A stretch of 64,000 nt of DNA. Origin: Methanobacteriota archaeon (GTDB lineage: Archaea > Methanobacteriota > Methanobacteria > Methanobacteriales > Methanobacteriaceae). Positions within the stretch are counted from its first letter, which is position 1; every line of letters begins with the position of its first letter. Positions 1-28,747 of the stretch are shown here, in pieces. Position numbers and translations under genes: made by a program. The DNA lies in the NCBI GenBank assembly GCA_963718335.1, contig CAVQYT010000007.1, positions 356,122-420,121 on the forward strand, written 5' to 3'. The notes below the pieces were generated by a model that was not told the origin of the DNA, ran no database searches, and saw only the letters and a list, made by a program, of their open reading frames with translations.

Positions 1-364
1 TGACATCATGCCGGAACAGATACAGTTGGAGTACATGGGCGGTTCAATGAGGCTGGGATCTTATCCCTGCAGCATTATAAAAGGAACACTGGCCCATGAT
101 GCCTACGGGGAAAAATCCATAGACGAAAGACACAGACATAGATTCGAATTCAACAACGATTTCCGTGAAATCTTACAGGAAAAGGGTCTGGTGATTTCAG
201 GTATTTCACCCAATTATCTACTGGTGGAGATGATTGAACTTGAAGATCATCCCTGGTTTTTAGGATGCCAGTTCCATCCAGAATTTAAATCAAGACCAAA
301 TAAAGCACATCCAATATTTGTTTCCTTTATGAAGGCCGCACTTCTAAACAAGAATAACGGATGA
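1..364 (+). CDS. pyrG: CTP synthase, C-terminal glutamine amidotransferase part (5' end lies outside the window)
   Basis: The frame is open from position 2. The translation has [24 protein letters not shown], the class I amidotransferase segment of CTP synthase. Confidence 0.9.
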
Positions 365-370
365 TAACCC

Positions 371-1528
371 ATGGTAGAGATACCGTTTTTATGTACAGTA
401 ATCGCTATCTTAGCATGTTTTTTTGCCAGTTACACCGATATTAAATGGGGTATAATTCCCAATAAATTAACTTTTCCTTTAATTTTTCTGGGTATAGTTT
501 TAAATGGTTTTTATGCCATTGTGGCAGGTAATATCTGGCTATTGTTTTATAACTTAATTTTTACTGCAGGGATCTTTGTACTGGGATACCTTCTGTGGAA
601 ATTAGGAGCATGGGCCGGTGGAGATGTTAAGTTGTTCACCGCACTGGCTGCCCTCTTACCATTTTATCCGGCCATAATTAGTTACAATGTATGGGGTGTT
701 GAATTCCCCATTACAGCCGTATATCCCTTTCCCTTAACTTTAATCATAAACAGTATTCTGGCCATATTTCCCTTTTTGTTAATATTCATATTTTACATTG
801 CATTTAGAAAAAAACGTTACCTCATGGACGAGCTAGTTGCACCGGTCAATGAATACATGAAAAATTTTGTTTTAACCCTGGTAATAACTTCTGCAGTTTC
901 ATTAACCCTTTTTATCACACCATATCTACCATTCCAGATTATTTTGATCTCCCTTATTCTAATTTACATTTTGACCCTGATTATTTCCAAACTCCCCAAT
1001 AGAATAAAAGCTGTGCTGGTATCTGTTCTGGTGGCGTTCGCTCTTTTCAACAATTTATTCTTAACACTAAGCAGCATCATCATATTATTTATTTCTATAA
1101 ATGTAATAGAAGTTGTAAGGAAGCTTTTAACCACAGTAAATAAGAAAGCACTTCAAGACGATGTGGAAATAGCGAATTTAAAGGAAGGAATGATATCTGC
1201 CTACAACCTTTATAAGGTGGATGATGAAGTTATAGTGGATGATAAGGGATTTTTTGATAAGTTAAAGGGATTATTTAGAGGAGGAGACCTTTCTGAGGTT
1301 TCCGGACCTCCTGGAAAACTTCTTGTAAGTAATATGGCAGCAGGAATATCTAAAGATAATATAGAACTTATAAAAAAGTTACATGAAGATAATAAGATTT
1401 CTAATCACATCAGGATTAAAAAAGGAGTTCCATTTGCACCTTCAATTTTAATAGGTCTTATCATATCCCTTTTTATTGGAGATCTGGCGGTAATACTACA
1501 GAAAGTGCTTTATTTTTTGTTTATATGA
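371..1528 (+). CDS. Archaeal A24-family class III signal (prepilin/preflagellin) peptidase, EppA/FlaK-like
   Basis: Polytopic 385-aa membrane protein. The two catalytic Asp contexts are SYTDIKWGIIPN and GAWAGGDVKLF, and the C-terminus has GVPFAPSILIG. It starts 6 nt after pyrG and sits directly upstream of the pilin-like genes. Confidence 0.8.
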   Translation: MVEIPFLCTVIAILACFFASYTDIKWGIIPNKLTFPLIFLGIVLNGFYAIVAGNIWLLFYNLIFTAGIFVLGYLLWKLGAWAGGDVKLFTALAALLPFYPAIISYNVWGVEFPITAVYPFPLTLIINSILAIFPFLLIFIFYIAFRKKRYLMDELVAPVNEYMKNFVLTLVITSAVSLTLFITPYLPFQIILISLILIYILTLIISKLPNRIKAVLVSVLVAFALFNNLFLTLSSIIILFISINVIEVVRKLLTTVNKKALQDDVEIANLKEGMISAYNLYKVDDEVIVDDKGFFDKLKGLFRGGDLSEVSGPPGKLLVSNMAAGISKDNIELIKKLHEDNKISNHIRIKKGVPFAPSILIGLIISLFIGDLAVILQKVLYFLFI

Positions 1529-1590
1529 ACAAACTTTAAAGCAATTCCATACCAAAATGTTATATAGTTAAAATCCTAATTTTTTAATTA

Positions 1591-2025
1591 GTGAAAAGAA
1601 TGGATATTAGAGGGCAGATATCGGTTGAATATCTTCTTTTGATTGTAGTAATTTTGATTATTTTAGGTGCTGTTACCATTCCATTGGCAGGAAAATCTAT
1701 CGATGCCAGTAACGATGTTTCATGGACTTCAGATGCAAAGGTAGCAGTTGAAAGTGTTGCAAATGCTGTAGACATTGTTTATGCCAATGGACCTGGCGCA
1801 AAAAGAACCATAGATATTTACATTCCTCAAAATAACATGGCTTTACAAACAAAGGGTAATAACATATTTATTGCAACTTCCTTATCGGGTAATACACAAA
1901 AAAATGTAACTGCAACTACTGGATACACTTTAAACACAAATTCCATATCTCTTAATAAAAATTGGCATAAAATACAGGTTACATGGCCAATTGGTGGCAG
2001 TATAAGTATTACAGCATTGAATTAA
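1591..2025 (+). CDS. Type IV pilin-like protein with class III signal peptide
   Basis: N-terminus MKRMDIRG/QISVEYLLLIVVILIILG: a short basic leader, the Q-x-S-x-E-x-x-x-L pattern (Class_IIIsignal/DUF361 type) and a hydrophobic helix. Confidence 0.75.
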   Translation: MKRMDIRGQISVEYLLLIVVILIILGAVTIPLAGKSIDASNDVSWTSDAKVAVESVANAVDIVYANGPGAKRTIDIYIPQNNMALQTKGNNIFIATSLSGNTQKNVTATTGYTLNTNSISLNKNWHKIQVTWPIGGSISITALN

Positions 2026-2036
2026 TAGGTGATTAT

Positions 2037-2948
2037 ATGAGATTCTTCACTATATTTGGAGATTTAATCTTAAAAATGTTAAGATTTTTTGGTACGTTAA
2101 TTTTGGATATACCAAATATTCCTAATAGAATACGAGGCATTAAAACCAGTAATTTAAAGAAAAAAATGGATATGGGAGTTATTAAGGAAAATATATCCAA
2201 AGTAAAGAATAGTGAAGTTATACAGAAGAATAAATCAAAAATTTCCAAGGTAAATGCTACTCCCACTGATCATAACATAAAAACAGGTGAATATAAAGAA
2301 AATATAACCGATAAAGCTAAAATAGAAAGGGGTTTTGGAAAATTCACATCAGAAGAAAAGGAGAGAACTGTTTTTTTGCTTCAAATTATATCTGGAGCTT
2401 TTTTAGTAATAAATATGCTTTATATTTTTAATTTCATTTCAATTATTATTTACGGAATTTTAGGGGTTCTTTCAGTAGCATACATAATTTATGTCCTGTT
2501 TACAAAAATTAAATTGATGTATGGAACTGATTTTAACGCATATCGTGATTTCTTTTTGATGTACGTTGGTGTAGGCATTATTCTTGTACTGGTTGGAACA
2601 AATCCCAATTTTGTAATGACTTTATCATTCCAATTTTTCCCTTCACTTTCAGTTTTAATATTTGCCTTAATAGCTGTAATAACTGTATTTTTAATTTTTA
2701 GAATTAAATATCACCGAGATTACACCTTTGGAAAAGTAATTGAAGCCGGAAAAAAAACTGCTTATGTTAAAGTGGACTATGATATTTGCTCTAATGTTAA
2801 ACCTGATATCTATATGGTGAAAAATGAATCCGGCGCTCAAGATGGAGATGTGGTTAGACTTAAAATAGAAGAGAATATTTTAAGTATGAAGGGAAATAAG
2901 CCAAGTATAATAACTGATATTTTAAATAAGTCTCAATTTTCGTCTTAA
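2037..2948 (+). CDS. Membrane protein of unknown function embedded in the pilin locus (possibly DUF2101-like)
   Basis: ATG at 2037 is preceded by AGGTGA. It has a Lys-rich N-terminal region, several hydrophobic helices and a soluble beta-rich C-terminal ~80 aa. The track ORF start at 1983 overlaps the pilin gene and is probably not used. Confidence 0.55.
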   Translation: MRFFTIFGDLILKMLRFFGTLILDIPNIPNRIRGIKTSNLKKKMDMGVIKENISKVKNSEVIQKNKSKISKVNATPTDHNIKTGEYKENITDKAKIERGFGKFTSEEKERTVFLLQIISGAFLVINMLYIFNFISIIIYGILGVLSVAYIIYVLFTKIKLMYGTDFNAYRDFFLMYVGVGIILVLVGTNPNFVMTLSFQFFPSLSVLIFALIAVITVFLIFRIKYHRDYTFGKVIEAGKKTAYVKVDYDICSNVKPDIYMVKNESGAQDGDVVRLKIEENILSMKGNKPSIITDILNKSQFSS

Positions 2949-2982
2949 AAAAAAAATTTTAATAGCTTATTTTCAATTTTGA

Positions 2983-3393
2983 TTATACAATAACAACGCT
3001 GTATGTATGTCTACTTGTTATTACAACATCATCGAATGGATTGCCTGAATCAACAGTGTTTATCTGGTATTTACCCACATTTGCAATTGAATTTATGACA
3101 GCATTGAATATAGTTATGTTGGCATTGTTGGAAACAGGTCCAGATAAGTTTATTAATAGGGTTAAATTTTGTCCATTTCCAGTCATTCTTATATCATTAA
3201 CTCTAATCGGATCCATATTTCTGTTTAAAATAGTTAAATTAGTCACAGAATCCATTGCCCCTGTTCTTGCAGCTGTTGTAACTGTATTTATTTCGTTACT
3301 ATCACTGATATACGATCCCATTAAAATTACAATTACCAACATAAAGGCAATGACAAGTACAAACTCCAGTGAAATTTGCCCTTTTTGATCCAT
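2983..3393 (-). CDS. Type IV pilin-like protein with class III signal peptide
   Basis: N-terminus MDQKG/QISLEFVLVIAFMLVIVILMG matches the Q-x-S-x-E-x-x-x-L class III pattern. It is divergent from the 3709-8176 operon. Confidence 0.75.
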   Translation of the reverse strand: MDQKGQISLEFVLVIAFMLVIVILMGSYISDSNEINTVTTAARTGAMDSVTNLTILNRNMDPIRVNDIRMTGNGQNLTLLINLSGPVSNNANITIFNAVINSIANVGKYQINTVDSGNPFDDVVITSRHTYSVVIV

Positions 3394-3708
3394 TTTATCA
3401 TTATCTTCTTTTTAGTTAGAGTGTTATATTATTTTCTATTGGCTAAAGTAGATAATTTTATTTCATTTAATAAAAAAATCGACTTTTATTCAAATTAAAA
3501 ACTTTTTTTAATGACTGATAGTAAATAGATATATTCACAAATCAAAGTAGGTATTTGCTTCTTTAATGTGAAAATAATCACGTCATAATTATGACATCAT
3601 ATATGATTGTGATTAATAAAATATAAATCGATATGTGTTAATATTGTATTGCTTAAATATCGGTTAACGGTTTAAAATGTGCATTAGTCATGAATTCGGG
3701 GGATACTT

Positions 3709-4599
3709 TTGGGACCATTAAGAAGAGATTCTGAAGGCCAAATTTTTTCTATTGATCTTTTGCTTGCTTTAATTCCAATTGTCCTCTTATTAGGTATGGC
3801 TGCTTCAGATATGGACAACATATATTATTTGGTCCAGGGAACTGTTTTTCAAAGTTCAACAGAGAGAGTGGCTTCAGATTCTGTTAATGCACTTGTTGAA
3901 ACGTCTGGAAGCCCTAATAATTGGGAAATTGTGGGGAACTTATCGGTTGTTGGACTGGCCAAGTATGATACTAAAAAAAATATGTCTGTTGAAAATTATT
4001 TATCTCCCTATAAATTAAATGCATTACAGCCCCAATATGTCCAGAATCTCCTGGGTCCAGAATATGGATTTTTTTTAAATTTAAGCAGAGTGGATAATAA
4101 AGCGGTTACCCTTAAAACAATTGGAAATTACAATAACACTGCTCAAAATATAATAAAAGTGGAGAGATTAGTAGTTACATCAAATCTTCAATTAGAAGCG
4201 TCTTTAGAAGGTTTAATACGAGCTACTGGTCAGCCACGAACATATGAAACCACATTTCAAAGTAATGGCGCTACCGTAGGGGCATATGACTACTGGGTAC
4301 TGGTTCTTAATAGAGGCTATGATTCAGCCAGTGTAGATGTAAATTCTAATCCTGTTGTAACTCAAAGTGAGATTAAACACGATATAACCGAAATTAAGAA
4401 ATTGATAAATAGTTCATATTTAAAAAATCAGACCCAATTAATGGATAATATTGTGACAGTCAGGGGACAAAGTACTCCTGGTAATTCCATGGATGTTTAT
4501 ATAATCTCTGCACCTAAAGGAACTCCTGAAAGTGAAATTAGTCTGGAAAATACTAAATTAAGACAATGTAATTTTGAATTTTTTGTATGGGTGAAATGA
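3709..4599 (+). CDS. Prepilin-like protein (variant class III signal peptide), 296 aa
   Basis: TTG start. The N-terminus ..RRDSEG/QIFSIDLLLALIPIVLLLG is followed by a globular region with several N-x-S/T sequons. First gene of a tightly packed four-gene set. Confidence 0.6.
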   Translation: MGPLRRDSEGQIFSIDLLLALIPIVLLLGMAASDMDNIYYLVQGTVFQSSTERVASDSVNALVETSGSPNNWEIVGNLSVVGLAKYDTKKNMSVENYLSPYKLNALQPQYVQNLLGPEYGFFLNLSRVDNKAVTLKTIGNYNNTAQNIIKVERLVVTSNLQLEASLEGLIRATGQPRTYETTFQSNGATVGAYDYWVLVLNRGYDSASVDVNSNPVVTQSEIKHDITEIKKLINSSYLKNQTQLMDNIVTVRGQSTPGNSMDVYIISAPKGTPESEISLENTKLRQCNFEFFVWVK

Positions 4600-6671
4600 T
4601 GGACGATAAGGGGTTTATCTTTACAACTGATGCCACATTGGCACTTGTTGTATTTATGGTGTTTACAGTTTCATTGGCTACTTATTTAATATTACCCAGT
4701 TATTTGGGTAACGATCATCAGCATCTTGATCGATTAGCTGCAGATGCACTACGAATAATGCATCAGGATGGCACATTATATCTGGCTTCAGTGCAGTATC
4801 AAAATGGAAATGTAACAGGAGCTCAAAACACGTTAAATTCAGCTTTAAATAATTTAATACCTGCAGATATCGGTTATAGGATCACATTAGCATCTTATCC
4901 CCCAGCAGAAAATGATAGAGGTCTTCTATATGCTAATAATATTGTAACCAGGACAGATGTAATATCTGGACCTAAAGAAGGTTGGATGGGAAGGGCTTGG
5001 TATAAGGTTGAAAAGGCAGAATTTGTAGATCAACCTACCAATGTTACCACAACCCTATGGAACTTCCACAACTGGCTTACCAATTTTGATCCATGGAATA
5101 GCAATAATCATTTAAGCAGCTATCCTTACTGGGGAAGGGGCAGCACACCTCAAAATATTGCATTTTCCGTCCCTTCTGGAGCAACAATTAATAGCTTCAC
5201 CTTTTTATTGGGCTCTTCAAGTCATCAGAATCGGGGTAAATCATATGCAGCCGATGTTGTAATCAATAATTATCACAACGTTATATCTAATTCAAGTTTC
5301 ACATTCTTGAATTTGAGACCTGGAAGCCAGGAAACCATGTTTAATTACCAGGGATTCCCCAATGTTGGTCAAATTCACACCGGTTCAAATGGATTTTATG
5401 TAAATTATTTAAATGCAACCAGTTACAGTGATATGCCATGGTTTTCAATCATAGCTAACTACACTACGTCTTTTAAAGTTCCTCAGGGCGTATTAAACAG
5501 TAGAATTGACTTTGATAACGCAGCGGGATTAGCGGTCCCTAATGCACAGGATTTAGGTGATGGAACAAACGCATATGGAAGGATATATAATTTAAATATG
5601 GGTACTGTACAGTCTTTTTATAATAGTAGAATAATGAGTTGGAATTCATTTGTATCAAACAGGAATACTTTAGATAATTATGATGATGGAATACCCTTTG
5701 TAATTGATAACGTCAATGGAGAAGATGGAAGTGCTGTAAGTGTAGTAAAGGAATTTAATATACCCACAGATAACGTGAGAATTCTTGATGCATATCTGGT
5801 TACAAATATTTATGGAGCTGCAGATAATGCCATGGTTGAAGTATGGGATGGTACTCAGTGGAAAACGGTTTTCTGTTCATTTGATTTTGATGGAGTGGAC
5901 TACAGTGGAACAGATGGTTACGGTAATATACCCGGCATATTGTACATTGGGGATAAATTAAGAACAGGACAAAATAAAGTCAGGATAACTTTATGGGATA
6001 ATGCTCCAGCAAATGATTATGACCTTGTTGGAATCGTTAACTCATATGTATCTTTTTCGTACACCCGTTTACCAATAAGATGGGAAAATTTTGCCTTTAA
6101 CAGTTACCAGGATACAGATAACAGTAATCAGCAGACCCGTACTTTTACCATTGATAACAATGCTAAAGAAGTTTATTTATTCACAGGATCAGGTACTGAC
6201 ACAAGGCATATAAAAGTAGAAGTTAGGACAGGAACAGGTGGGACCTGGAGAACATTATACGACAGTGATACTGTACCTTATTCTTTAAATTTAGCTTCAT
6301 TAGATGCAGGTTCATCTAATAAAGTATTTACAACAGGTAATTCAGCAAATTACACTATTATACCTGGAAATTACAGGACAAGAGTAACTATAACCAGTCC
6401 TTCCAATGGATGGGAATCAGGAGATTCATACGCAGAAATATTTTCAGGTACACGGGTTTCTGTTTTATATCCCGAATTTCTGGAAAATAGGTGGACAGCA
6501 TCCTATGCCAGTGATCCTGAAACAGCTAAACAACAGGCACGTCAGGAACTTATCAATATATTAACTCAATCCGGTATAACACCAGATCCAAATTTAATCA
6601 GGGAAGAAGCTTTATACACTGGAGATTTACCCAATTCAATACCAGTGAGGTTAGAATTATGGAAGCATTGA
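4587..6671 (+). CDS. Large prepilin-like surface protein (~690 aa), candidate adhesin / tip component
   Basis: N-terminus (M)MDDKG/FIFTTDATLALVVFMVFTV. The likely start is ATG 4596, which forms an ATGA overlap with the upstream stop. The body is long, Asn/Thr/Ser-rich and has many N-x-S/T sequons. Confidence 0.6.
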   Translation: MGEMMDDKGFIFTTDATLALVVFMVFTVSLATYLILPSYLGNDHQHLDRLAADALRIMHQDGTLYLASVQYQNGNVTGAQNTLNSALNNLIPADIGYRITLASYPPAENDRGLLYANNIVTRTDVISGPKEGWMGRAWYKVEKAEFVDQPTNVTTTLWNFHNWLTNFDPWNSNNHLSSYPYWGRGSTPQNIAFSVPSGATINSFTFLLGSSSHQNRGKSYAADVVINNYHNVISNSSFTFLNLRPGSQETMFNYQGFPNVGQIHTGSNGFYVNYLNATSYSDMPWFSIIANYTTSFKVPQGVLNSRIDFDNAAGLAVPNAQDLGDGTNAYGRIYNLNMGTVQSFYNSRIMSWNSFVSNRNTLDNYDDGIPFVIDNVNGEDGSAVSVVKEFNIPTDNVRILDAYLVTNIYGAADNAMVEVWDGTQWKTVFCSFDFDGVDYSGTDGYGNIPGILYIGDKLRTGQNKVRITLWDNAPANDYDLVGIVNSYVSFSYTRLPIRWENFAFNSYQDTDNSNQQTRTFTIDNNAKEVYLFTGSGTDTRHIKVEVRTGTGGTWRTLYDSDTVPYSLNLASLDAGSSNKVFTTGNSANYTIIPGNYRTRVTITSPSNGWESGDSYAEIFSGTRVSVLYPEFLENRWTASYASDPETAKQQARQELINILTQSGITPDPNLIREEALYTGDLPNSIPVRLELWKH

Positions 6672-6680
6672 GGGATTAAA

Positions 6681-7745
6681 ATGGATGAAGGAGGCTATGT
6701 ATTTACTCCAATGGCATTTTTACTTTTTATACCGGTTATTATAATTGCGGTGAGTTTTAGTGGAATTGTGAATGAAGCTAATAACATTGCAGCCATAACT
6801 ATAGGTGGAGATGTGAGTTTTTCTGCAGTGTCAAATATTGTTTCAGCTACGGAAAAGGGAGCATCGGATGCTGGTAGAAATTCTGCTTATAACGCCACCC
6901 GAAAGGTAATTGACAGTAGTAGTGTTAATGGATCAAACCCATTTTTTGCCAATGGTCAAAGTAAAACTTATATCCTTAACAACATCTTGCCAGTTTTAAA
7001 TAGTCATGTTATCACAACCAGTAAGGAAATAGAATATCAAACGGGACGACAAATTTACATCAACAACATTGCAATAGATAACTACACAAACTCAACCTTT
7101 AGCGCCAGCGACCTTGAAATCACCCAGAGTGATCCATTTGGTTTTACTGTTAACATTAAAGGTGGAATACCAATTAAAATAGTTCAAAAAGACCAGGTAT
7201 ATGAAGGTAAGATGCCTCCAATTTCTGCCTATGTTTCTATTGAAGGATTGGAAGATCCATATATATGGGTTAACTCCAGATATAGACAGAGTAATATCAT
7301 TTATAAATATCCCTATTATAGGGAATATGGAAATGAGTACTTCTTTGATGATTCTGTGGATGATGATAATCATAGGTTATATTTCCTGTGGGATTGCCTC
7401 AATGGGACTGGAAATCCAAGTAATATTTATCCCAGACCTTTTTATTTCCCAAATCAATATGGGTTAACATTCTTTGACCGGTTGGAAAATAGAAGTTCGT
7501 CTGGTGATGCAAATGTAAAAAACAGGATGAGTACATTTATAATTGAAGATCCATTGAGGGAAAATCATGGCACTGAAGCTGTTTCTAGATTGGATCAGGA
7601 ATATTTTAATAATGTAGCCGGTACGTCCATAGAAATAGGTACGGGGCAGAATAGGGAGCCAATGCAGGATCCTTCAGGAAATGCTATATTTTACCTTTCA
7701 ACATTCTATAAAAACTACTTTGGTCTGCAAAATAGGTATAACTAG
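6681..7745 (+). CDS. Prepilin-like protein, 354 aa
   Basis: N-terminus MDEGG/YVFTPMAFLLFIPVIIIAV. It starts 9 nt after the preceding gene. Confidence 0.55.
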   Translation: MDEGGYVFTPMAFLLFIPVIIIAVSFSGIVNEANNIAAITIGGDVSFSAVSNIVSATEKGASDAGRNSAYNATRKVIDSSSVNGSNPFFANGQSKTYILNNILPVLNSHVITTSKEIEYQTGRQIYINNIAIDNYTNSTFSASDLEITQSDPFGFTVNIKGGIPIKIVQKDQVYEGKMPPISAYVSIEGLEDPYIWVNSRYRQSNIIYKYPYYREYGNEYFFDDSVDDDNHRLYFLWDCLNGTGNPSNIYPRPFYFPNQYGLTFFDRLENRSSSGDANVKNRMSTFIIEDPLRENHGTEAVSRLDQEYFNNVAGTSIEIGTGQNREPMQDPSGNAIFYLSTFYKNYFGLQNRYN

Positions 7746-7759
7746 AGATAGGAGTTAAA

Positions 7760-8176
7760 ATGATTTTAGATGATAAGGGAATTGCAACTGCAGAATTATT
7801 ATTGGTAACTTTAATATTTTTGATAATTATAGGTGGATTTATTAATTTAACTGGTTCTGCCCTTAATAAAACCCAGACTGGAACTCTAGGTGAGGTTAGG
7901 ATGATTGGTGAAAGAATTGCTGAAACCATTAATACAGTTTATCTTAATGGTAATGGATATTCAATCAATATGACATTACCTAATACAACTAACAATCAGG
8001 TAAGTTATACAGCAATGATAAATAGTACAAATAATACTGCATATCTTAAAATGCAGTATGGTTCTAATATTACTATTAAATTAATTCCTAACAGTGTTCA
8101 AAGTGTAGTATTAAATAAAGGACAGAAATATAGGGTTTATAATGAGAATGGAACCATAAAATTCCTCACATTATGA
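7760..8176 (+). CDS. Type IV pilin-like protein, 138 aa
   Basis: N-terminus MILDDKG/IATAELLLVTLIFLIIIGG. It starts 14 nt after the preceding gene. The body is Asn/Thr-rich. Confidence 0.6.
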   Translation: MILDDKGIATAELLLVTLIFLIIIGGFINLTGSALNKTQTGTLGEVRMIGERIAETINTVYLNGNGYSINMTLPNTTNNQVSYTAMINSTNNTAYLKMQYGSNITIKLIPNSVQSVVLNKGQKYRVYNENGTIKFLTL

Positions 8177-8240: not shown

Positions 8241-8678
8241 ATGGACCTCGGACCAGGATGGGAAAAGAAAGGTTTAATAATTATTGTCATAATCACTTTA
8301 ATTATTGTAGTTTATGCTTATGGACCATTTAAAGGTGATAGTAAAGCAGAAGTTCAGAATAATACATCACAGACTCCAGTGCCCGCTCCAATATCAACAC
8401 CAGCGGTAAATAACAACGTCACCAATTCTACAATAGGCAACGTAAATGTAACTGGTGGGTCTAATGGAACGTACCAGATAACCTCAGAACAGGCCAAAAA
8501 AATTGCAACACAGCCTGGATTTACAACTGGACAACCTACAAAGGGTAATGTAATGATGAATAACAACAACATACCGGTTTGGATTGTTCCTCTTATGAAG
8601 GGTAATGTTGTGGTTAAAAGAGTCTATGTTGATGGAATAACCGGAGTAATCGTTGGTAGTGAAGAAGTTAAAAATTAA
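8241..8678 (+). CDS. Membrane-anchored protein with C-terminal PepSY-like domain
   Basis: Signal anchor MDLGPGWEKKGLIIIVIITLIIVVYAY, an N/T/S/P-rich linker, and a C-terminal ITSEQAKKIA...VYVDGITGVIVGSEEV that resembles PepSY. GGAG lies upstream of the ATG. Confidence 0.5.
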   Translation: MDLGPGWEKKGLIIIVIITLIIVVYAYGPFKGDSKAEVQNNTSQTPVPAPISTPAVNNNVTNSTIGNVNVTGGSNGTYQITSEQAKKIATQPGFTTGQPTKGNVMMNNNNIPVWIVPLMKGNVVVKRVYVDGITGVIVGSEEVKN

Positions 8679-8911: not shown

Positions 8912-9181
8912 ATGAATTTAGGACCTGGCTGGGAGAAAAAGGTGTTAATTGTACTGGCGGCAATAACCCTAATTTTAATTATCTATGGATTTGGATCATC
9001 AAAAATTAACACCAACAACACCACTAATCAAACCATAGAACAGCCATCAGTGGCTCCAGAACCTGCTACAACATCAACAGATCAATCAAATTCCAATAAT
9101 CCAACCAATACTATTTCAAATAATACCAACAATAATACTACCGTTCAGGTGAATGCGACAGATCAAGCTGTTGCAGACTAA
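8912..9181 (+). CDS. Truncated paralog of 8241..8678 (anchor plus low-complexity linker only)
   Basis: The N-terminus MNLGPGWEKKVLIVLAAITLILIIYGF is nearly identical in pattern to the neighbour. The ORF stops where the PepSY-like domain would begin. Confidence 0.4.
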   Translation: MNLGPGWEKKVLIVLAAITLILIIYGFGSSKINTNNTTNQTIEQPSVAPEPATTSTDQSNSNNPTNTISNNTNNNTTVQVNATDQAVAD

Positions 9182-9351: not shown

Positions 9352-10155
9352 ATGGAAACAATTGTAGTAATACTAATGGTTGCATTATTTGTAATTTTAA
9401 TGGCATTTGTATTTTCAACGGCCCTTCTAACCCCAATAATTGGTAAAAAAAATTTATTATTTGTACTGGCCATAGGATTTGTGGTGGGAATAATTGGAGG
9501 ATTATTCTTTATTGCACCGGTGGTGGAAGATATACCTGGACTGGCCACATCTTTCTATCTTTCCACATCCAATTCAGTAGAAACATTGAACGTGGACGTT
9601 TCCAGTAATTTAGATACCAATCAGTTCATAGAAAAAACCAGAAGTCTTGATGGGGTTAAAAGCGTCACTGTTTATGGGGTAACCATAAAAACAGCGGCTT
9701 TCAGTGATAGCTGGAAGACGACATATCAAAACCGTATACCCGTAGCGGTGAAGGGGATCAAATCAGTGCAGATACCCTCCAACGATATCCTTGAAGTTCA
9801 AATTCAAGATGGGTACAACACACCAGATACAATTAAAAAACTGGAAGACTGGATGATGCTGGTCTCAGGGATTGCAGTTAGATACAGTCTGGCCCATGCG
9901 GCTGTAGAGGTGGAATCATCAAAGGTTTATTCGGTTTCCAAGGAACTATCCAAAGATGCAGTTGTTAAAGATATTAAAGGGCCGACACAGGATAAGATAA
10001 ACTTCATTAACTCCATTTTACCCAACAAGTTCAATGTGGTTCTTTTATGTGGATTTATTGGACTTTTAACCGGACTTGCCGGCGTCTTCGTGGACACCCT
10101 TATCGGTTTTATAAACAATCTCAGGGATAGGCTGAAGAAGAAGGATAAAAAATAA
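9352..10155 (+). CDS. Membrane protein, unknown function
   Basis: Two N-terminal hydrophobic helices, a ~150-aa hydrophilic middle region, one C-terminal helix and a basic tail. No motif recognised. Confidence 0.5.
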   Translation: METIVVILMVALFVILMAFVFSTALLTPIIGKKNLLFVLAIGFVVGIIGGLFFIAPVVEDIPGLATSFYLSTSNSVETLNVDVSSNLDTNQFIEKTRSLDGVKSVTVYGVTIKTAAFSDSWKTTYQNRIPVAVKGIKSVQIPSNDILEVQIQDGYNTPDTIKKLEDWMMLVSGIAVRYSLAHAAVEVESSKVYSVSKELSKDAVVKDIKGPTQDKINFINSILPNKFNVVLLCGFIGLLTGLAGVFVDTLIGFINNLRDRLKKKDKK

Positions 10156-13199: not shown

Positions 13200-14243
13200 A
13201 TGACCGACTTGTTAGAAAAACTGTCCAATGCTCCAGGAGTATCTGGCTTTGAAGAAGAGATCCGTAATATAATGACCCTTGAATTAAAGGGTCACGTTGA
13301 TGAGATAGAGATTGACAACATGGGTAATCTGATTGCAACCAAGAAAGGCAAGAGGAAAGCTAAAAAAATAATGCTAGCTGCCCATATGGATGAAATAGGG
13401 TTGATGGTGCGTTTTATTGATAAAGAGGGATTTATAAAGTTTTCTAAAATAGGTGGAATAAACGATCAGATGCTTCTAAATCAGGAAGTCATTATCCACA
13501 CTGAAGGGGAGAAGGTACTGGGAGTCATTGGGGCCAAGCCACCACACAGGATGAAAGCTGCCGAGAAAAAGAAGGTGGTTGATCATGAAAATATGTTCAT
13601 CGATATTGGAGCTTCAAAGAAAGATGCAGAGAAGCTGGTAAGTATTGGAGATCCAATCACCATAAAACACACCTTTTCCAATCTCCAGGGAAATCTGGTA
13701 ACAGGTAAGGCATTTGACAACAGAGTTGGTTGTTACGTTCTGATAGAAGCTATAAAACGCGCTAAAACCGATGCAACCATCATCGGTGTAGGTACCGTTC
13801 AAGAAGAGGTTGGTCTGAAGGGTGCCAGAACTTCAGCATTTAAAATTAATCCAGATCTGGCCATAGCACTTGATGTGACCATAGCTGGAGATCATCCGGG
13901 GATAAAATTGGAGGAAGCTCCAGTAAAAATAAACAGTGGTCCAGCCATAATACTCACTGATGCCAGCGGTAGAGGGTTAATCACACACCCCAAAGTAAAA
14001 AAACTGCTCATAGATACGGCCGTTCAAGAAGAAATTCCTCATCAGCTTGAAGTAGGTGAGGGAGGAACCACTGATGCGACTGCAATTCATTTAACCAGGG
14101 AAGGTATAGCTACAGGAGTTTTATCGGTTCCCACCAGGTACATACACACCCCGGTGGAAGTGGTAAGTCTTGAAGATATAGAAAACACAATCAATCTTCT
14201 GGTGGCAGCATTAGAAAGTTTTACAGATAAAAATCCTCTTTAA
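13200..14243 (+). CDS. M42 family metallopeptidase (TET/FrvX-type aminopeptidase)
   Basis: [42 protein letters not shown] and the length fit the M42 family. Confidence 0.85.
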
Positions 14244-14974
14244 ATATTTTCTTCGTCTCCAGATAATATTTCCAGTCCATTGGAGTTTATTTCATAGGTC
14301 ATGAATTGGGTGGGGGTACGTGTACTTCTCATCTTAACGATGTCCATAATCCTTTCCCTTCTACCAGTATATGGATTTTCACGTTTCATGAGTCTGATAG
14401 CCCCATAAACTGGAAATAGGGCAAGTTCATTGAATTCGTTGGAGGTGGCACTGTCCAGTATGATCAGAGCTGTGATGTCTCTTTTTTTTAATTCAAAAAC
14501 CAGATGATCGAAACGATTTCTAAACTCATAGGGCGTTAGTTTAGCGGTGTAATTTCCTAAATTATCAATAACAACAACGTTAAAATCAGGGGGTATATAT
14601 TCCAGTATTTTGGTAAAGCTTCCCTTCATGGTATCGATGTCTATGCTTATCTCTGCTTCGGTGACCTTTGCTCTGACTCCAGCCAGTTCAATGAATTTCA
14701 AGAGATCTTTTTCTTTGTACTCTCCTAAATTCCAGTTGAAGGTGTCTCCCTGCATATTGAGGTCATAAGCATCTTCTTCAGTGGTTATATACGCGGTTTT
14801 AAGCCCCTTTTCGCAGCTATTTTTTGCAAATTGGAGTCCGAATATAGTTTTTCCTGAACCAGCATCACCAGTGATGAGCATGGTTCTTCCCTTTGGAAAT
14901 CCACCTGTAATTTGGTCAAATATTGATATTCCTGTTTTTATCCTTTCCATTTCATATCTCCTTTTATGATACAT
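14240..14974 (-). CDS. KaiC-like RecA-superfamily ATPase (single domain)
   Basis: [40 protein letters not shown], a KaiC/RadA-type Walker A context. An alternative start is ATG 14950 (MERIK). It lies directly downstream of the response regulator. Confidence 0.8.
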
Positions 14975-14987
14975 GGATTATAATCAT

Positions 14988-16274
14988 TTAAAACCTATTA
15001 TCTTTATTCAATAATTCATTGAAGTTATTTGAGTTCCCCTCAGTGGATATATTGAACTGGAACATACATCCATCATTTCCATCAGCCATACTTGAAATCT
15101 GTTCCACATGTCCTTTAATTGATGTCCATGTAAAACTGCGAATCACAATGATCCTGCAGATCAAACAGAACATGGGGCTGTACTTGGCCTCATTTTCCCA
15201 TGGGCAGTTGGTAAAGGTTATGGTGTTGTCGGATACCGGTGCCTTCTCCACATCGATACCTAAGTTGGATAAGAATTCTTCTATCCATTCCATATAACAG
15301 TGGAAATTTTCCAGAGTTTCATGGGTAAAATTGATGCATTTGGCAAAATCTCTTTCAAAGCCGGGTCTCATATTTTTTTCAAAACGGTCAGCAAAACTTT
15401 TGGCGATGTTATTTCTTATCTGGGGAGGAATGTTAGATGCAAAAACGGGCATGGCACTTAGAAGAAAACCAAAAAGTTCACTTCTGGCCTTTTCCTTCAG
15501 TAACTGCTCCCTTTCTTTTTCAGCTTTTTTACGCTGACTGATATCCTGAAAAACCAGCACAACTCCTGTATTATGGTTATTATCATCTATTATAGGGGCA
15601 TTGGTACTGTTAATATGTATTTTATTCCCATATTTGTTTACCAAAATAATATTTTCATTGATGTTGCTTATTAAATTATTTAAGGATAAATCAATTGATT
15701 CTGCAGTATCTGCATTATATATCTGCATGATTTCATGGATAGGATTTCCAATTGCTTCATCCTGTTCCCAGCCCGTTAATTTTTGGGCAATGGGATTCAT
15801 GAAGGTAATTTTTCCCTCTTCATCTGTGGTTATAACGGCCTCACCAATACTTTCCAGTGTTGTATAAAGCCATTTTTCATTAGCCCTTAATTTACTTTCC
15901 ATTTCATGTTTGTAAAGGGCCACTTCAATGGCACTGTGTAATTCACGATCTTCAAATGGTTTAATAATGTAGCCAAATGGACCGGTTATCTTGGCTCTTT
16001 TTAAGGTTTTTTCATCAGAATAAGCAGTTAAATATACCACAGGGATGTTATATCTGTCTTTAATTACTTGAGCAGCTTTAATACCATCTACTTCTCCTCT
16101 TAAAACTATATCCATCAAAACTAAATCAGGTGATATTTGTAAAGCTTTTTCTATTGCTTCTTCTCCTGAGGATATTATTTCTGGAACTTGATAGTTCATA
16201 TTCTCAAGTCTACGTTTAATATCCATAGCTACTATACTTTCATCTTCTACCACAAGAATTTTAACAGGAAACAT
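14988..16274 (-). CDS. Response regulator: receiver + PAS + Cys-containing C-terminal output region
   Basis: Receiver: [31 protein letters not shown]: [29 protein letters not shown]. The C-terminal ~170 aa carries CPWENE..FCLICR, reminiscent of methanogen-specific output domains. The output-domain assignment is uncertain. Confidence 0.85.
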
Positions 16275-21901: not shown

Positions 21902-23221
21902 ATGAAAACCAAAAAAGATAACATCGTAATAAAGGGAGCAAGGGAGCATAATTTAAAAAATATCGATATTACCATCCCCAGGGATAAGCTCATCGTCATA
22001 TCTGGAATCAGTGGTTCAGGGAAATCATCACTGGCATTTGATACTATATATGCTGAAGGTCAAAGAAGATATGTAGAATCCCTATCTGCATACGCCCGAC
22101 AGTTTTTGGGGCAGATGAAAAAACCAGAGATCGACTATATCGAGGGACTTTCACCAGCCATTTCCATAGATCAAAAAACAACCAAGATGAATCCCCGATC
22201 TACGGTGGGAACAGTTACTGAAATTTACGATTATTTAAGACTTTTATATGCTAGAGTTGGCATTCCACACTGTTATAATTGTGGTAAACCCATAGCACAG
22301 CAGACTTCAGGTCAGATAGTAGATAACATACTCCAGGAGGAAGAGGAAACAAGGATTCAGATACTGGCACCGGTGGTTAAGGACAGGAAGGGTGAACATC
22401 ATAAGTTACTGGAAGAACTAAAAAGAAAGGGTTTTGTACGGATAAGGGTGGATGGTGAGATATTAAGCATGGATGATGATATTGACCTGGATAAAAATAA
22501 AAAACATACCCTGGATGTGGTTGTGGACAGGCTGATTATAAGATACGATGTTGATTTTAAAAGAAGACTTGCAGATTCAGTTGAAACTGCCCTTGAACTT
22601 GGAGAAGGTGTGGTCACCGTTCTGTACCAAAAGGATGATAAAAGCAGAGAAAAAGTTTTCAGCGAACACTTTGCATGCACAGACTGTGGAATCAACTTCC
22701 AGGAGATAAGTCCACGAACATTTTCATTCAACAGTCCGCACGGAGCCTGTTCCACATGTAATGGGCTGGGAAGCAAAATGGAAATAGATACCGATCTGGT
22801 GATTCCTGATAAATCCCTTTCACTTTCTGAGGGGGCAATTTTGCCCTGGAGTAAATCTAAAAATAGGAATAATTATTACAATCAAATGCTTAAAGCAGTG
22901 GCCAGCTATTATGGCTTCAGCATGGATACTCCATTCCAGGATTTAGGAAAAAAATACCAGAACATTGTTCTTTATGGATCATCAGAACGTGTGGACTTTA
23001 CCTTCAGAAGAAAAAACAGAATGCATCATGTAAAAAGGAAATTTGAAGGTGTGGTAAGGAGGATGGAACGCCTCTTTATGGACACCAAATCCAATTACAT
23101 GCGTGGTTACATTGGTCAGTTCATGAGCGATAGAAAATGTCCAGACTGCGAAGGCACCAGATTAAGGCCTGAAAGCCGTTCTGTGACTGTGGGAGGTAAA
23201 TCAATTTCAACGGTATCGTAA
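21902..23221 (+). CDS. uvrA: Excinuclease ABC subunit A, N-terminal 439-aa fragment (ends at the in-frame TAA 23219-23221)
   Basis: [10 protein letters not shown], Walker [24 protein letters not shown] and zinc-module Cys pairs. It is in the same frame as the next ORF. Confidence 0.85.
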
Positions 23222-24790
23222 ATGCCCATCAAAGAATCTAAAAAGTTTTTTTCCCAGTTAAAATTAACAGAAATGGAGAATTTCATTGCCAAGGAGATAC
23301 TTAAGGAGATAAATGAGCGTTTAAAGTTTCTGGCCAATGTGGGTCTGGATTATATCACACTTGACAGGTCTTCAGGTACTCTTTCAGGTGGAGAAGCTCA
23401 AAGGATCCGTCTTGCCACCCAGATAGGTTCTGGACTGGTGGGGGTTCTCTACATTCTGGATGAACCCAGTATTGGACTGCATCAAAGGGACAATGCCAGG
23501 CTCATAGAAACCCTTAAAAAGCTTCGAGATATAGGTAACACTCTCATAATCGTGGAACACGATGAGGAAACAATATTGTCGGCAGATCATGTAATTGATA
23601 TCGGTCCTGGAGCCGGTGAACACGGAGGAAGAATAACCGCTTCTGGTAATCCTCTAAAGATTATGGATAACCCTGATTCTATCACTGGAAGATTCTTATC
23701 CAGAAAAGATACCATTGAAATACCAGATAAAAGAACAGAACCTAATGGTAAATACATAACTGTGGTGGGGGCCAGGCATAACAACCTTCAAAACATCGAT
23801 GTGAAGATTCCACTGGGGGTTTTCAGTTGTATCACCGGTGTTTCAGGGTCAGGAAAAAGTACACTCATAAATGACGTGCTTTACAAGGGACTTTCAGGTA
23901 AATTCAATAAAAGACATGTGATAGCCGGAAAACATGACCATATTGAGGGAACTGAAAACATCGACAAGGTAATTATCATAGATCAATCGCCAATAGGAAG
24001 AACACCCCGTTCCAATCCAGCAACCTACACAGGGGTGTTCACATATATAAGGGAAATTTTTGCAGATACAATCGAATCTAAAAAAAGAGGATATAAACCT
24101 GGAAGATTTAGTTTTAATGTGAAAGGAGGCCGCTGCAACGCCTGCCATGGTGATGGAATTATTAAAATTGAAATGCACTTTTTAGCAGATGTTTACGTAC
24201 CCTGTGAGGTATGTGCAGGTAAAAGATATAACCGAGAGACTCTGGATATTAGGTATAAGGGTAAAAACATCGCTGATGTTCTGGATATGACTGTGGAAGA
24301 AGCTCTCCACTTCTTCAGGAATATACCACGTATCCATAAAAAATTAAAAACTCTGGATGACGTTGGACTCAGTTACATCAAACTGGGACAACCCGCCACT
24401 ACTCTTTCTGGTGGGGAAGCTCAACGAGTTAAGCTGTCCAAGGAATTAAGCCGTCAGAGCACAGGTAGTACTCTGTACATACTTGATGAACCAACCACAG
24501 GACTTCACTTCGCCGATATTAAAAAGCTTTTAGATGTTCTGGGGAGATTAAGGGACTCTGGAAACACCATACTGGTAATCGAACATAACATGGATGTTAT
24601 TAAGACTGCCGACTACATCATTGACCTTGGTCCGGAGGGTGGAGATGAAGGAGGACTTGTTGTAGCTGAAGGAACTCCGGAAGATATTGCCTTAAGTGAT
24701 ACTTACACAGGTAATTTCTTGAAAAATGTTTTAAAGGGCAAATCACCAATCCAGGCTGGGGAAATGGAATTTAAGATGGTTTCTAAATGA
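23222..24790 (+). CDS. uvrA: Excinuclease ABC subunit A, C-terminal 522-aa fragment
   Basis: Continues colinearly: [29 protein letters not shown], second Walker [11 protein letters not shown], and a second [11 protein letters not shown] / [12 protein letters not shown]. Confidence 0.85.
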
Positions 24791-26912: not shown

Positions 26913-27860
26913 CTAATAATGGGCATGTAATTCATGTAAGCGGGAAAAGATCATGGCCACCGTTATTATATCCTGCTGGTTATGTTTAACTATGGGGATT
27001 AATGGGCCAGCGTTCCCTGTTTTAAGGTATGTTTCGTAGAATTCTGGTACCAGACCGCTGGGTACATCATCATCCCTTAAGATATTGAATAAATGAGTTT
27101 CCAGAGTTTGTAACTGGCAATTCATGGTTTCCCCACTCCACTGGCGCCTTGAAAAATGTAGCATGTCAAAATGGGAATGATTTATATTATCCTTTAAGTT
27201 GAAGTAACGTATTCTATCCTTAATAAACGGTAAGTCGAAGGTTTGACCATTAAAAGTTACAAAAACACTGCTGGGTTCAATGTCAGATATAAAAGAATCT
27301 AAAACCGCCTTTTCTTCCCCTGTATTTCGGGATAGGTACTGTTTTACGTTGATCTTATTATCAGATACACTTGCTATTCCCAGAAGGATGATGGGGCTTG
27401 AATGAAGGCCCATAGTCTCAATATCCAGGAATATGAACTCATGGTCATGTTTGAAACTGGATGAATAGAGTAAGAGTGGATGAGAACGAGGATAAAATCT
27501 GCAGATCCAGTCTTCAATTTCACAACTGTCCCTGTTTTTTAAGTGACTTAAAAATTTTGAGGCCTCACCGGCAAATTTCTCATGATCCCTTAAATCTTCA
27601 ATGGTGCAGTACCCTTCATCTTTGAGCCGCTGCTCTCTTACCTCACCAATTCCACTTAAGATCTTTAAATCGCTTAAGATTTTCTCCTCTGCTTTTTTAC
27701 TACTTAATGTATTTAATTTTATAGTGGATTCCTTTTCTATTTGGTAACAGAGACCATTGGCAGTTTTGACTTCTTCCCCTTTAATTAATTCATCCAGGGA
27801 TTTTCCTTCATTTTCAGTTAATAACCGTTGTTTTAATTTATAAGCGTTTAGATATTCCAT
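26913..27860 (-). CDS. RNase H-fold exonuclease (YprB/COG3359-like) with N-terminal helix-hairpin-helix
   Basis: LSGIGEVREQRLKDEGY (HhH), then FIFLDIETMGL and FNGQTFDLPFI exonuclease motifs. Confidence 0.6.
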   Translation of the reverse strand: MEYLNAYKLKQRLLTENEGKSLDELIKGEEVKTANGLCYQIEKESTIKLNTLSSKKAEEKILSDLKILSGIGEVREQRLKDEGYCTIEDLRDHEKFAGEASKFLSHLKNRDSCEIEDWICRFYPRSHPLLLYSSSFKHDHEFIFLDIETMGLHSSPIILLGIASVSDNKINVKQYLSRNTGEEKAVLDSFISDIEPSSVFVTFNGQTFDLPFIKDRIRYFNLKDNINHSHFDMLHFSRRQWSGETMNCQLQTLETHLFNILRDDDVPSGLVPEFYETYLKTGNAGPLIPIVKHNQQDIITVAMIFSRLHELHAHY

Positions 27861-27949
27861 GCATTTAATTCCTTGATAATTAAATTTTATAGTCAGTTTA
27901 TAATATTGGAGAGAAAGAATAAATAATTTAGTAAATTAAAAAAAAAATT

Positions 27950-28747
27950 TCAAGATTTAAAGGCATCTACATACTTGCTGAAAACACCATCCATGAACTT
28001 GGATACAATAACATCGCTGGTTAAATCATTTTCATAGGAATACTGTTCAATCACCCTTGTGGCCAGTTTCATAATTAACTTAGAAGTTTTAGAACTGGGT
28101 TTTTTTAGGATTATTGGATTTCTAGAAGCATTTGCAATCTGTAATTGTGGATCTTCAGGTATAATGGATAAAACAGGCACCTTGAGGATCACTTCAATCT
28201 CCTCAGTGGTTAAAAATACCTTATCCTCAACCTTCCTGTTTATTATTACCCCCAGAATTTTTATACCTAACTTTTCTGCCACTATCTTTGTTTTTAATGT
28301 GTCGCTTAAAGATGAGATTTCTGGAGTGGTTACCAGTATTATTTCATTGGATACTTCAATTGCGTTTATGGTATCTCTTTCCAGCCCTCCAGGAGCATCG
28401 ATAATCAGTATATCGATGTCTTCAGTTAGGGTTTCCAGCACATATTCCATCCTCTCCATTCTCATATCCTTCAATCCATAAAGTGATAGGCCGGCTGGTA
28501 CTATTTTAACCCCACCAGGTCCTTCATAAATTGCGTTATGGATCATGTCCCTTCCAGACAGTACTTCCTGCAGGGTAACTGGTTTATCTTCCAGACCCAG
28601 TATCAGCTCCAGATTTGCCATGGCTATATCCAGATCTAAAACCACCACATCTTCCCCGCGTAAGGACATGGCTATTCCTAGATTGGCAGCAATTGTGGTC
28701 TTTCCTACGCCCCCCTTCCCTGAGGCAACAGCTATAACTCTCGCCAT
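27950..28747 (-). CDS. minD: MinD/ParA-type P-loop ATPase (archaeal MinD)
   Basis: RVIAVASGKGGVGKTTIAANLG deviant Walker A, and DVVVLDLDIAMANLE. Confidence 0.85.
   Translation of the reverse strand: MARVIAVASGKGGVGKTTIAANLGIAMSLRGEDVVVLDLDIAMANLELILGLEDKPVTLQEVLSGRDMIHNAIYEGPGGVKIVPAGLSLYGLKDMRMERMEYVLETLTEDIDILIIDAPGGLERDTINAIEVSNEIILVTTPEISSLSDTLKTKIVAEKLGIKILGVIINRKVEDKVFLTTEEIEVILKVPVLSIIPEDPQLQIANASRNPIILKKPSSKTSKLIMKLATRVIEQYSYENDLTSDVIVSKFMDGVFSKYVDAFKS

Follow-up and report, generated by a model that had tools for sequence, protein, structure and literature searches.

A prepilin peptidase and minor-pilin gene cluster of a Methanobacterium species, probably the accessory part of an Epd-type archaeal type IV pilus

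What do pilin-like genes with their own signal peptidase build when no gene for a secretion ATPase or membrane platform lies among them? The question is raised by a 64,000-nucleotide (nt) stretch of contig CAVQYT010000007.1 from a Methanobacterium species (the whole stretch is the window of this text), where a gene for an A24 aspartyl prepilin peptidase, directly after pyrG, is followed by six genes whose products begin with archaeal class III (type IV prepilin) signals. Our analysis indicates that this locus is probably the peptidase-plus-minor-pilin accessory cluster of an archaeal type IV pilus of the Epd type (clade 1). A local gap at the place of the ATPase is then expected rather than strange, because Epd-type systems split the motor from the operon, as Methanococcus maripaludis does.

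The peptidase and its class III neighbours

The peptidase (385 residues; Table 1) is of the long, EppA-type form. It matches Pfam Peptidase_A24 (2.3e-14), Arc_PepC (8.3e-29) and Arc_PepC_II (1.4e-8), and is laid out as an N-terminal catalytic membrane domain, a soluble Arc_PepC domain (approximately residues 239–349) and a C-terminal transmembrane (TM) segment, with about 9–10 hydrophobic segments in its hydrophobicity profile. The catalytic aspartates D23 and D85 do not vary among 83 diverse relatives (22–58% identity), and the family profile matches the FlaK structure (3S0X) over the catalytic domain (3.4e-21); judged by these features, the enzyme is apparently active. Its nearest named relatives come from Methanobacterium metagenome-assembled genomes and isolates. 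Gene calling done independently on a Logan assembly from this organism reproduces the gene set (141, 321, 136, 296, 691, 354, 138, 145, 89, 267 and 226 aa).

All six class III proteins have a single N-terminal hydrophobic segment and none further. The glycine before the predicted cleavage site (position −1) is retained in 77–100% of Methanobacteriaceae orthologues (22–67 per family): 100% in the 141-aa, 354-aa and 138-aa families, 97% in the 691-aa, 96% in the 296-aa and 77% in the 136-aa family. Position −2 is most often Lys or Arg in every family (50–90%). These motif residues stay while the cluster proteins overall have drifted to a median identity of 40–47%, and such conservation among orthologues rules out chance open reading frames (ORFs). 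A rule-based six-frame scan finds class III N-termini at true ORF starts only between 1591 and 8176, a restriction that makes the clustering exceed chance; apart from one 70-aa ORF, all other matches lie at starts internal to polytopic membrane proteins. The 691-aa protein falls slightly below the hydrophobicity threshold of the scan, and its motif is nonetheless conserved. The 70-aa ORF (at 60405) was rejected as a major pilin by its basic, cytoplasmic-type C-terminal tail. Scanning ORFs of at least 35 aa revealed no class III major pilin of about 70 aa in the 64 kb, as expected if that protein is encoded elsewhere, as in M. maripaludis.

Three of the six are small and resemble characterized minor pilins at the cleavage site, each having [KR]-G/Q and an acid at +5: RG/QISVE in the 141-aa protein (Q at +1, E at +5), KG/QISLE in the 136-aa protein and KG/QASAE as the family consensus of the 138-aa protein. 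Conservation of these motifs is complete for G, Q, S and E in the first (n = 67 orthologues) and for Q, S and E in the second (n = 22); in the third, E is kept in 80% (n = 52). The first pilin likely starts at ATG 1600, not GTG 1591. The 136-aa protein, encoded on the opposite strand, also matches the TIGR04205 class III domain (2e-5). Eight N-glycosylation sequons occur in the 138-aa protein (5.8 per 100 aa, against 0 in adjacent cytoplasmic proteins), and the cluster proteins with a predicted extracellular location show an enrichment of sequons. A single-sequence structure model of the 141-aa pilin (pLDDT 48) was too poor for use.

An earlier reading of the window from its letters alone (the sequence-only reading) had described an A24 signal peptidase directly after pyrG and six class III N-termini within 7.8 kb. 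Both descriptions stand, the former by coordinates, Pfam domains and invariant aspartates, the latter by coordinates, single TM segments and the retained glycine. The search against the Class_IIIsignal family (PF04021) that it proposed succeeds in part: the 141-aa pilin passes the cut-off of 23.7 bits (26.4 bits), and the 136-aa pilin is slightly short of it at 22.6 bits.

The other three proteins are larger, with predicted sites of related but different form: G/QIFSxD (296 aa), G/FIFTxD (691 aa) and G/YxFTP (354 aa). The 296-aa protein partly fits the EppA substrate rule, having G/Q but with its Asp at +6; Ser and Asp of the motif are kept in 92% and 96% of orthologues (n = 26). Over its first approximately 135 residues it is related to the 691-aa protein (hhalign 84.6%, E 6.8e-6, 109 aligned columns), whereas likeness between the 354-aa and 691-aa proteins is confined to the signal and TM region. 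The 354-aa family has the consensus KG/YAFTP (K 90%, P 100%, n = 50), and Pfam searches gave no match for either the 296-aa or the 354-aa protein.

The 691-aa protein, which likely starts at 4596 (family glycine from n = 49 orthologues), was modelled with AlphaFold2 from an 83-sequence alignment (pLDDT 88.8, pTM 0.75). The model has a 48-residue N-terminal helix (residues 11–58) followed by several beta-sandwich or jelly-roll modules. Foldseek against the Protein Data Bank (PDB) returned only generic beta-sandwich/jelly-roll matches (TM ≤0.27), among them glycosidase accessory domains, BcsB and peptidylglycine monooxygenase (PHM). Weak matches to the archaeal pilin-type families DUF7262 and DUF7288 occur in 13 of 39 homologues each. 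The family numbers 252 proteins, its named members mostly from Methanobacteriaceae or Methanothermobacter and all annotated 'hypothetical'. From the model, the protein is probably a modular pilin with binding modules and a candidate adhesin.

The genes from 3709 to 8176 form a tightly packed block, all on the plus strand: the genes for the 296-aa and 691-aa proteins overlap, and the later gaps are 9 and 14 nt. A ribosome-binding site (GGGGGA) stands 5 nt ahead of the TTG start at 3709, and the AT-rich region between this block and the minus-strand pilin gene presumably carries divergent archaeal promoters. A scan of the window for bacterial-type promoters and terminators gave counts under the shuffled expectation and is uninformative for an archaeon.

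Missing motor genes and Epd-type relatives

Neither a T2SSE (secretion ATPase) nor a T2SSF (platform) gene was found in the 64 kb by tblastn with a clade-1 ATPase, FlaI, two T2SSF proteins and FlaJ (best E 0.04), and inspection of ORFs together with Pfam searches of the membrane proteins likewise gave none. This bears out what the sequence-only reading had reported. The absence extends beyond the window: a peptidase-profile scan of one genome per species gave 80 Methanobacteriaceae loci with 10-kb flanks (some cut by contig ends), and none of them (1.41 Mb) has a gene for a secretion ATPase or platform within 10 kb of the peptidase. The split arrangement is therefore the rule in the family. 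Nor, in two complete relatives, does a PilB/PilC pair sit immediately upstream of pyrG, a placement that the same reading had considered; the genes there are housekeeping genes. An archaellum (fla/arl) was rejected because there is no archaellin (Flagellin_arch-type, PF01917), FlaI or FlaJ match and the peptidase is of the long form, not the short FlaK type; the Sulfolobus Aap/Ups and haloarchaeal pil types were rejected because those pair pilins with PilB/PilC genes, of which the window has none.

Across the same 80 genomes the cluster is syntenic, in a comparison that had been suggested beforehand (occurrence of each gene in Table 1). Two relatives show how it varies. The pilin block and PP-loop ATPase gene of M. 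ferruginis (L004/L015) are inverted relative to the peptidase, and Methanobacterium sp. ACI-7 (L003/L008) has no 691-aa gene and a reduced set of 131, 132, 141, 179 and 392 aa. Conservation of the pilin genes (27–48% identity) is far below that of the housekeeping genes around them (48–85%).

The arrangement is that of M. maripaludis, where an 11-gene eppA–epd operon (MMP0231–0241) encodes EppA, the minor pilins EpdA–C and several unknown genes, and is without the ATPase MMP0040/EpdL, the platforms MMP0038/0039 (EpdJ/K) and the major pilin MMP1685 (EpdE) (PMC4187195, PMC3875500). The strain JJ positions are about 762 kb for eppA, 967–970 kb for epdL/K/J and 1,027 kb for a MinD-like ATPase gene (PMC10133366). 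M. maripaludis and the window both have a long prepilin peptidase, then a small RG/QI pilin, then a gene at the position of DUF2101; after these come additional class III proteins, a large secreted protein and uncharacterized membrane proteins, and a MinD-like ATPase is encoded at a separate locus. In EppA substrates position +1 is Gln and position +5 is acidic, EpdA being cut at RG/QI and EpdB–E at KGQ[VLI] (PMC4371748, PMC4187195). Unlike M. maripaludis, the window has a peptidase that is only distantly related, one pilin gene on the opposite strand and pyrG as a neighbour, and its large protein is made of other beta-sandwich modules.

A computational census by Makarova et al. 2016, without functional data for Methanobacteriales, places the clade 1 system in methanococci, Methanobacteriales and thermococci. 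Its listed traits are an EppA (arCOG02300) with 9 TM segments, no fewer than five minor pilins at each locus, additional membrane proteins and a PP-loop ATPase that is co-transcribed; for three Methanobacterium genomes it records exactly one secretion ATPase apiece, of clade 1 (PMC4858521). The window agrees with this list trait by trait, and has six class III genes near the peptidase, plus two possible ones, at 8241 and 8912, that the sequence-only reading does not name. The census counts Mth60 as a major pilin, whereas in later work the Mth60 fimbriae, the only ones studied in Methanobacteriales, are reported as non-type-IV (PMC10370314). From the census, and by analogy with M. maripaludis, we infer that the motor of this genome acts in trans.

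Homology, as distinct from layout, leads to Hydrothermarchaeota, in which two loci (L086 and L087) hold the whole system at one place: a T2SSE ATPase of the CpaF family and two T2SSF genes in cis, class III candidate major pilins of about 70 aa, EppA, four small [KR]GQ pilins and DUF2101. The window has in common with them EppA (E 5.6e-34), a DUF2101 protein that adjoins EppA and the minor pilins in both loci (E 2e-28), and three of the four small pilins, with spacing of the same order of magnitude. The 141-aa protein is homologous past its signal to the minor pilin L087:11645-12163 (E 5e-14), the 138-aa protein matches L087:12165-12653 (E 7e-11) and the 136-aa protein L087:12653-13108 (E 1e-8). 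Unlike the window, the Hydrothermarchaeota loci are without the large 296-, 691- and 354-aa proteins and without the PP-loop ATPase. In several other metagenomic lineages an EppA-like gene lies 3–4 kb from a clade-1-type ATPase. Such links tie the genes of the window to an ATPase-driven type IV machine.

On this basis we propose that the class III proteins would insert in the membrane by their N-terminal hydrophobic helix and that the EppA-type aspartyl peptidase would cut after the conserved glycine and so remove the short leaders. A priming or tip complex may be made up of the small pilins (141, 136 and 138 aa) and the larger pilin-like proteins (296, 691 and 354 aa), on which the 691-aa modular pilin would display its beta-sandwich modules, probably as an adhesin. 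A CpaF-family ATPase (arCOG01819) and two TadC-like platforms, encoded elsewhere, would drive polymerization, with a small major pilin that is likewise encoded elsewhere; DUF2101, the membrane protein of 267 aa and two further ATPases, the PP-loop one and the distant MinD-like one, would be conserved accessory or regulatory parts. The likely role of the filament is adhesion, DNA uptake or both, as in M. maripaludis, whose homologous system is needed for surface attachment and natural transformation.

Several results weigh against assigning the cluster to an Epd-type pilus. The peptidase scores 51.8 bits on the NCBIfam EppA equivalog NF053826, whose cut-off is 450, and none of 83 diverse peptidase relatives reaches E 1e-25 on it; at such a distance from the cut-off, the enzyme is EppA-type by architecture and stands outside the narrow Methanococcus orthologue group. 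Likeness to EpdA–I is judged by published layout, the sequence homology being to the Hydrothermarchaeota loci. No gene for an ATPase, a platform or a major pilin of the pilus was found in the 64 kb covered, and our searches yielded no clade-1 ATPase sequence from Methanobacteriaceae. DUF2341, a PilY-like adhesin domain present in M. maripaludis, is absent from the 691-aa protein and 38 homologues. The 691-aa and 354-aa proteins have Phe and Tyr in place of Gln at +1 and no acid at +5, and work on M. maripaludis has shown the importance of the +1 Gln for cleavage by EppA (PMC4187195). Finally, the literature that could be searched gave no type IV filament for Methanobacteriales.

We nevertheless favour the accessory cluster of an Epd-type pilus, and this changes the standing of the locus. 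The sequence-only reading had offered two ways out of the missing motor, service in trans or a surface structure assembled differently; the first is well supported and already the published state, and the second is most improbable. It had also put the locus forward as undescribed biology, with a match to an Epd-type locus as the finding that would speak against this. At the level of architecture that match exists, catalogued for Methanobacteriales in 2016, and the claim does not hold; its remark that type IV-like appendages of Methanobacteriales are poorly characterized is sound, as they are experimentally uncharacterized. No new kind of machine is revealed, and the novelty is modest: the family-specific large proteins, and a filament unseen in Methanobacteriales. 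A type IV filament is yet to be described experimentally in this order, and the cluster points to a full Epd-type set of minor pilins. Methanobacterium and Methanothermobacter would then carry Epd-type minor pilins that include a large, family-specific modular one. Given the role of the M. maripaludis system, the cluster offers deletion targets for work on adhesion and DNA uptake in methanogens of digesters, peat and corrosion sites.

Searches for relatives brought further observations on ATPase-bearing loci. With a clade-1 ATPase from Hydrothermarchaeota as seed, the best 120 relatives came from Hydrothermarchaeota, Thermococcus and others, with no Methanobacteriales among them; among the best 150 peptidase representatives there was no Methanococcales EppA. 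An AT-biased degenerate DNA pattern for MNTGHDG[CST]MGT retrieved 53 metagenome loci; viral contigs gave two fragments. Among the former (L088-L140) is a large AT-rich clade (GC3 0.07–0.18) of clade-1-like ATPases from lake, groundwater and digester metagenomes, with an EppA-like peptidase 3–4 kb from the ATPase in at least six loci; that proximity shows that the AT-rich loci are not Methanobacteriaceae. The Hydrothermarchaeota ATPase (L086:1872-5207; relatives P0276-P0342) is a tandem CpaF duplication of about 1,050–1,100 aa with two T2SSE domains, the N-terminal copy having a degenerate His-box region and NTGQNG in place of NTGHDG. In Thermococcus celericrescens (L085:9824-20830) an EppA-type peptidase gene is preceded by a 55-aa class III gene and lies about 3.7 kb from an archaellum operon (FlaJ, FlaI, FlaH and archaellins), not beside the clade-1 ATPase.

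A connection with DNA uptake is suggested by the gene order in Hydrothermarchaeota. At L086:13282-17172 and L087:13142-16018 the block of EppA, minor pilins and DUF2101 directly precedes a gene for an OB-fold (tRNA_anti-codon) protein; after one or two more ORFs without annotation comes a TctA-family transporter. OB-fold and TctA-like proteins are products of the M. maripaludis transformation genes MMJJ_13020 and MMJJ_13030, and their place beside the pilus block links the cluster to DNA uptake.

The large proteins and competing explanations

The three large proteins are the part of the cluster that is partly new: they were found in Methanobacteriaceae only, with no counterparts in the Hydrothermarchaeota loci. 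We consider it possible, and put it forward tentatively, that they form a lineage-specific pilus-tip module, sharing the non-canonical site G/[QFY]-x-F-[ST]-x-D and including one protein with carbohydrate-binding-like beta-sandwiches. If so, EppA-type peptidases would take substrates without the +1 Gln thought necessary, and pseudomurein-walled methanogens would deploy a type IV filament that has so far escaped notice and bears a new adhesin, perhaps in connection with natural DNA uptake. Large modular minor pilins with adhesin modules are established in bacteria (PMC8179133, PMC9934059). Bacterial minor-pilin sets and modular pilins, such as the pilins PilB and PilC of Streptococcus sanguinis, resemble the present cluster in having several co-transcribed pilin-like genes, a large one of which fuses an N-terminal pilin module with a binding module, and bacterial G/F sites are called to mind by Phe at +1 in the 691-aa protein. 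The likeness is functional only. No sequence or specific fold kinship was detected, and the assembly machinery would be of the archaeal/Tad type.

The large proteins could also stand apart from the filament, with only the small +1 Gln pilins entering a pilus and the trio, its class III-type N-termini serving solely for membrane anchoring or processing, displayed on the surface as binding proteins, like the PibD-processed sugar-binding proteins of Sulfolobus. Their sites would agree with this, since +1 Q/F/Y and G-x-x-F-[ST]-x-D depart from the EppA consensus and the 354-aa protein has no acid near +5; so would their absence from complete Hydrothermarchaeota loci, the retention of the rest of the cluster in Methanobacterium sp. 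ACI-7 without the 691-aa gene, and the resemblance of the 691-aa modules to carbohydrate-binding domains. We regard this arrangement as unlikely, however. The trio is packed into one block with the canonical 138-aa pilin, by overlap or gaps of 9–14 nt, its −1 Gly and −2 Lys/Arg are conserved as strongly as those of the small pilins, and the 296-aa and 691-aa proteins have in common an N-terminal pilin-like domain of about 110 residues, with weak DUF7262/DUF7288 matches; the bacterial modular minor pilins just cited are a precedent for pilins of this kind.

Two more radical possibilities concern the motor. A surface structure built by a new assembly route, with neither a VirB11/PilB-type ATPase nor a PilC-type platform, would account for the lack of such genes in the window and within 10 kb of the peptidase in 80 relatives, and for an ATPase unseen in this genome. 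Absence from the neighbourhood is, however, the published norm in M. maripaludis, the 2016 census gives one clade-1 ATPase to each Methanobacteriales genome that it covers, and homologous peptidase, pilin and DUF2101 sets adjoin an ATPase and two platform genes in other lineages, so that we find a new route highly improbable. We put the same very low probability on a relic whose motor was lost in the lineage. Nothing speaks for it directly, the motor being merely unseen here, and the ORFs are intact, with catalytic residues and cleavage motifs conserved (22–67 orthologues per family) while their surroundings diverge and gene order is maintained across 80 species. An accessory cluster of an Epd-type pilus accordingly remains our preferred explanation.

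Accessory and neighbouring genes

Table 1. Features of the pilin cluster and of the associated MinD-like gene; labels of protein families in brackets, occurrence as number of the 80 Methanobacteriaceae loci
Feature	Position (nt)	Strand	Loci of 80	Site, evidence or remark
pyrG, 3' end	8–364		79 (beside peptidase)	peptidase gene directly after
Long-form (EppA-type) A24 prepilin peptidase, 385 aa	371–1528	+		Pfam, catalytic Asp, FlaK profile match
Small minor pilin, EpdA-like, 141 aa (144 aa from GTG 1591) (p144)	1600–2025	+	74	predicted site IRG/QISVEY
DUF2101 polytopic membrane protein, 321 aa	1983–2948	+	74	Pfam DUF2101 2.1e-46
Small minor pilin, 136 aa (p136)	2983–3393	−	24 only	predicted site QKG/QISLEF
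AT-rich divergent intergenic region, 315 nt	3394–3708			between minus-strand pilin gene and four-gene block; sequence read directly
Class III protein, 296 aa (p296)	3709–4599	+	53	predicted site SEG/QIFSID; single N-terminal TM; first gene of block
Modular pilin-like protein, 691 aa (694-aa form, p694)	4596–6671	+	55	predicted site DKG/FIFTTD
Class III protein, 354 aa (p354)	6681–7745	+	54	predicted site DEGG/YVFTP
Small minor pilin, 138 aa (p138)	7760–8176	+	58	predicted site DKG/IATAEL
145-aa protein, N-terminal anchor MDLGPGWEKKG/LIII	8241–8678	+		single TM; weak PepSY-like C-terminal domain
89-aa paralogue of 145-aa protein, Asn/Thr-rich tail	8912–9181	+		BLASTP 7.9e-11; seven sequons
267-aa membrane protein, TM at both ends	9352–10155	+	59	median 45% identity; no significant Pfam match
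PP-loop ATPase (diphthamide-synthase family), 226 aa	10171–10851	+	62	Pfam Diphthami_syn_2 1.4e-88
MinD/FleN-like ATPase, about 20 kb off	27950–28747	−		Pfam ParA/CbiA

The start of the DUF2101 gene is probably 2037 by alignment to relatives; the independent gene call retains the 321-aa form. Past the pilin block, the 145-aa and 89-aa paralogues have the common N-terminus M[DN]LGPGWEKK[GA]L, followed by a hydrophobic stretch, with KK[AG]L conserved in 93–95% of orthologues (n = 48). The match of the 145-aa protein to Pfam PepSY (0.0016) is under the cut-off; from its N-terminus it may be a seventh peptidase substrate or a plain signal-anchor protein. The PP-loop ATPase gene closes the cluster 15 nt past the preceding gene, and a PP-loop ATPase of the arCOG00035 type is reported as co-transcribed with clade-1 pilus loci (PMC4858521).

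The MinD-like protein is 48.5% identical (E 7e-50) to a MinD-family protein of L086, the only one of the two Hydrothermarchaeota loci in which MinD is visible; its gene is separated from that of the pilus ATPase by a PGK gene, at a distance of about 1.4 kb. By this similarity the window protein is likely a pilus-associated regulatory ATPase of the arCOG00589 type. Pilus-dependent transformation of M. maripaludis requires a MinD-like gene (PMC10133366), and an uncharacterized neighbour of that gene is needed as well. In the window (26913–28747, minus strand) the MinD-like gene is followed by one for a 315-aa RNase_H_2/PolB-exonuclease-like protein (Pfam 6.8e-36).

On the minus strand at 14240–16274, a KaiC-like single-domain ATPase (14240–14974, Pfam KaiC 6.5e-59) adjoins a response-regulator/PAS protein. 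It was considered as a FlaH-type pilus part and rejected on its generic similarity (FlaH 7e-8, weak), its response-regulator context and the lack of an archaellum context.

Two ORFs further along are irregular. The uvrA gene (21902–24790) contains one in-frame TAA at 23219–23221 that divides it into ORFs of 439 and 522 aa, with a second ATG directly past the stop (tcg TAA ATG ccc). The stop may mark a pseudogene or a truly split gene, or come from a sequencing error; the nearby uvrB and uvrC look intact. On the minus strand at 30735–31961, an ORF for an MFS-type transporter with a TTG start ends in an atypical Cys/Gly-rich tail (FCIQSPKFCKVFGSSNGGGNF), which possibly reflects a frameshift near its 3' end.

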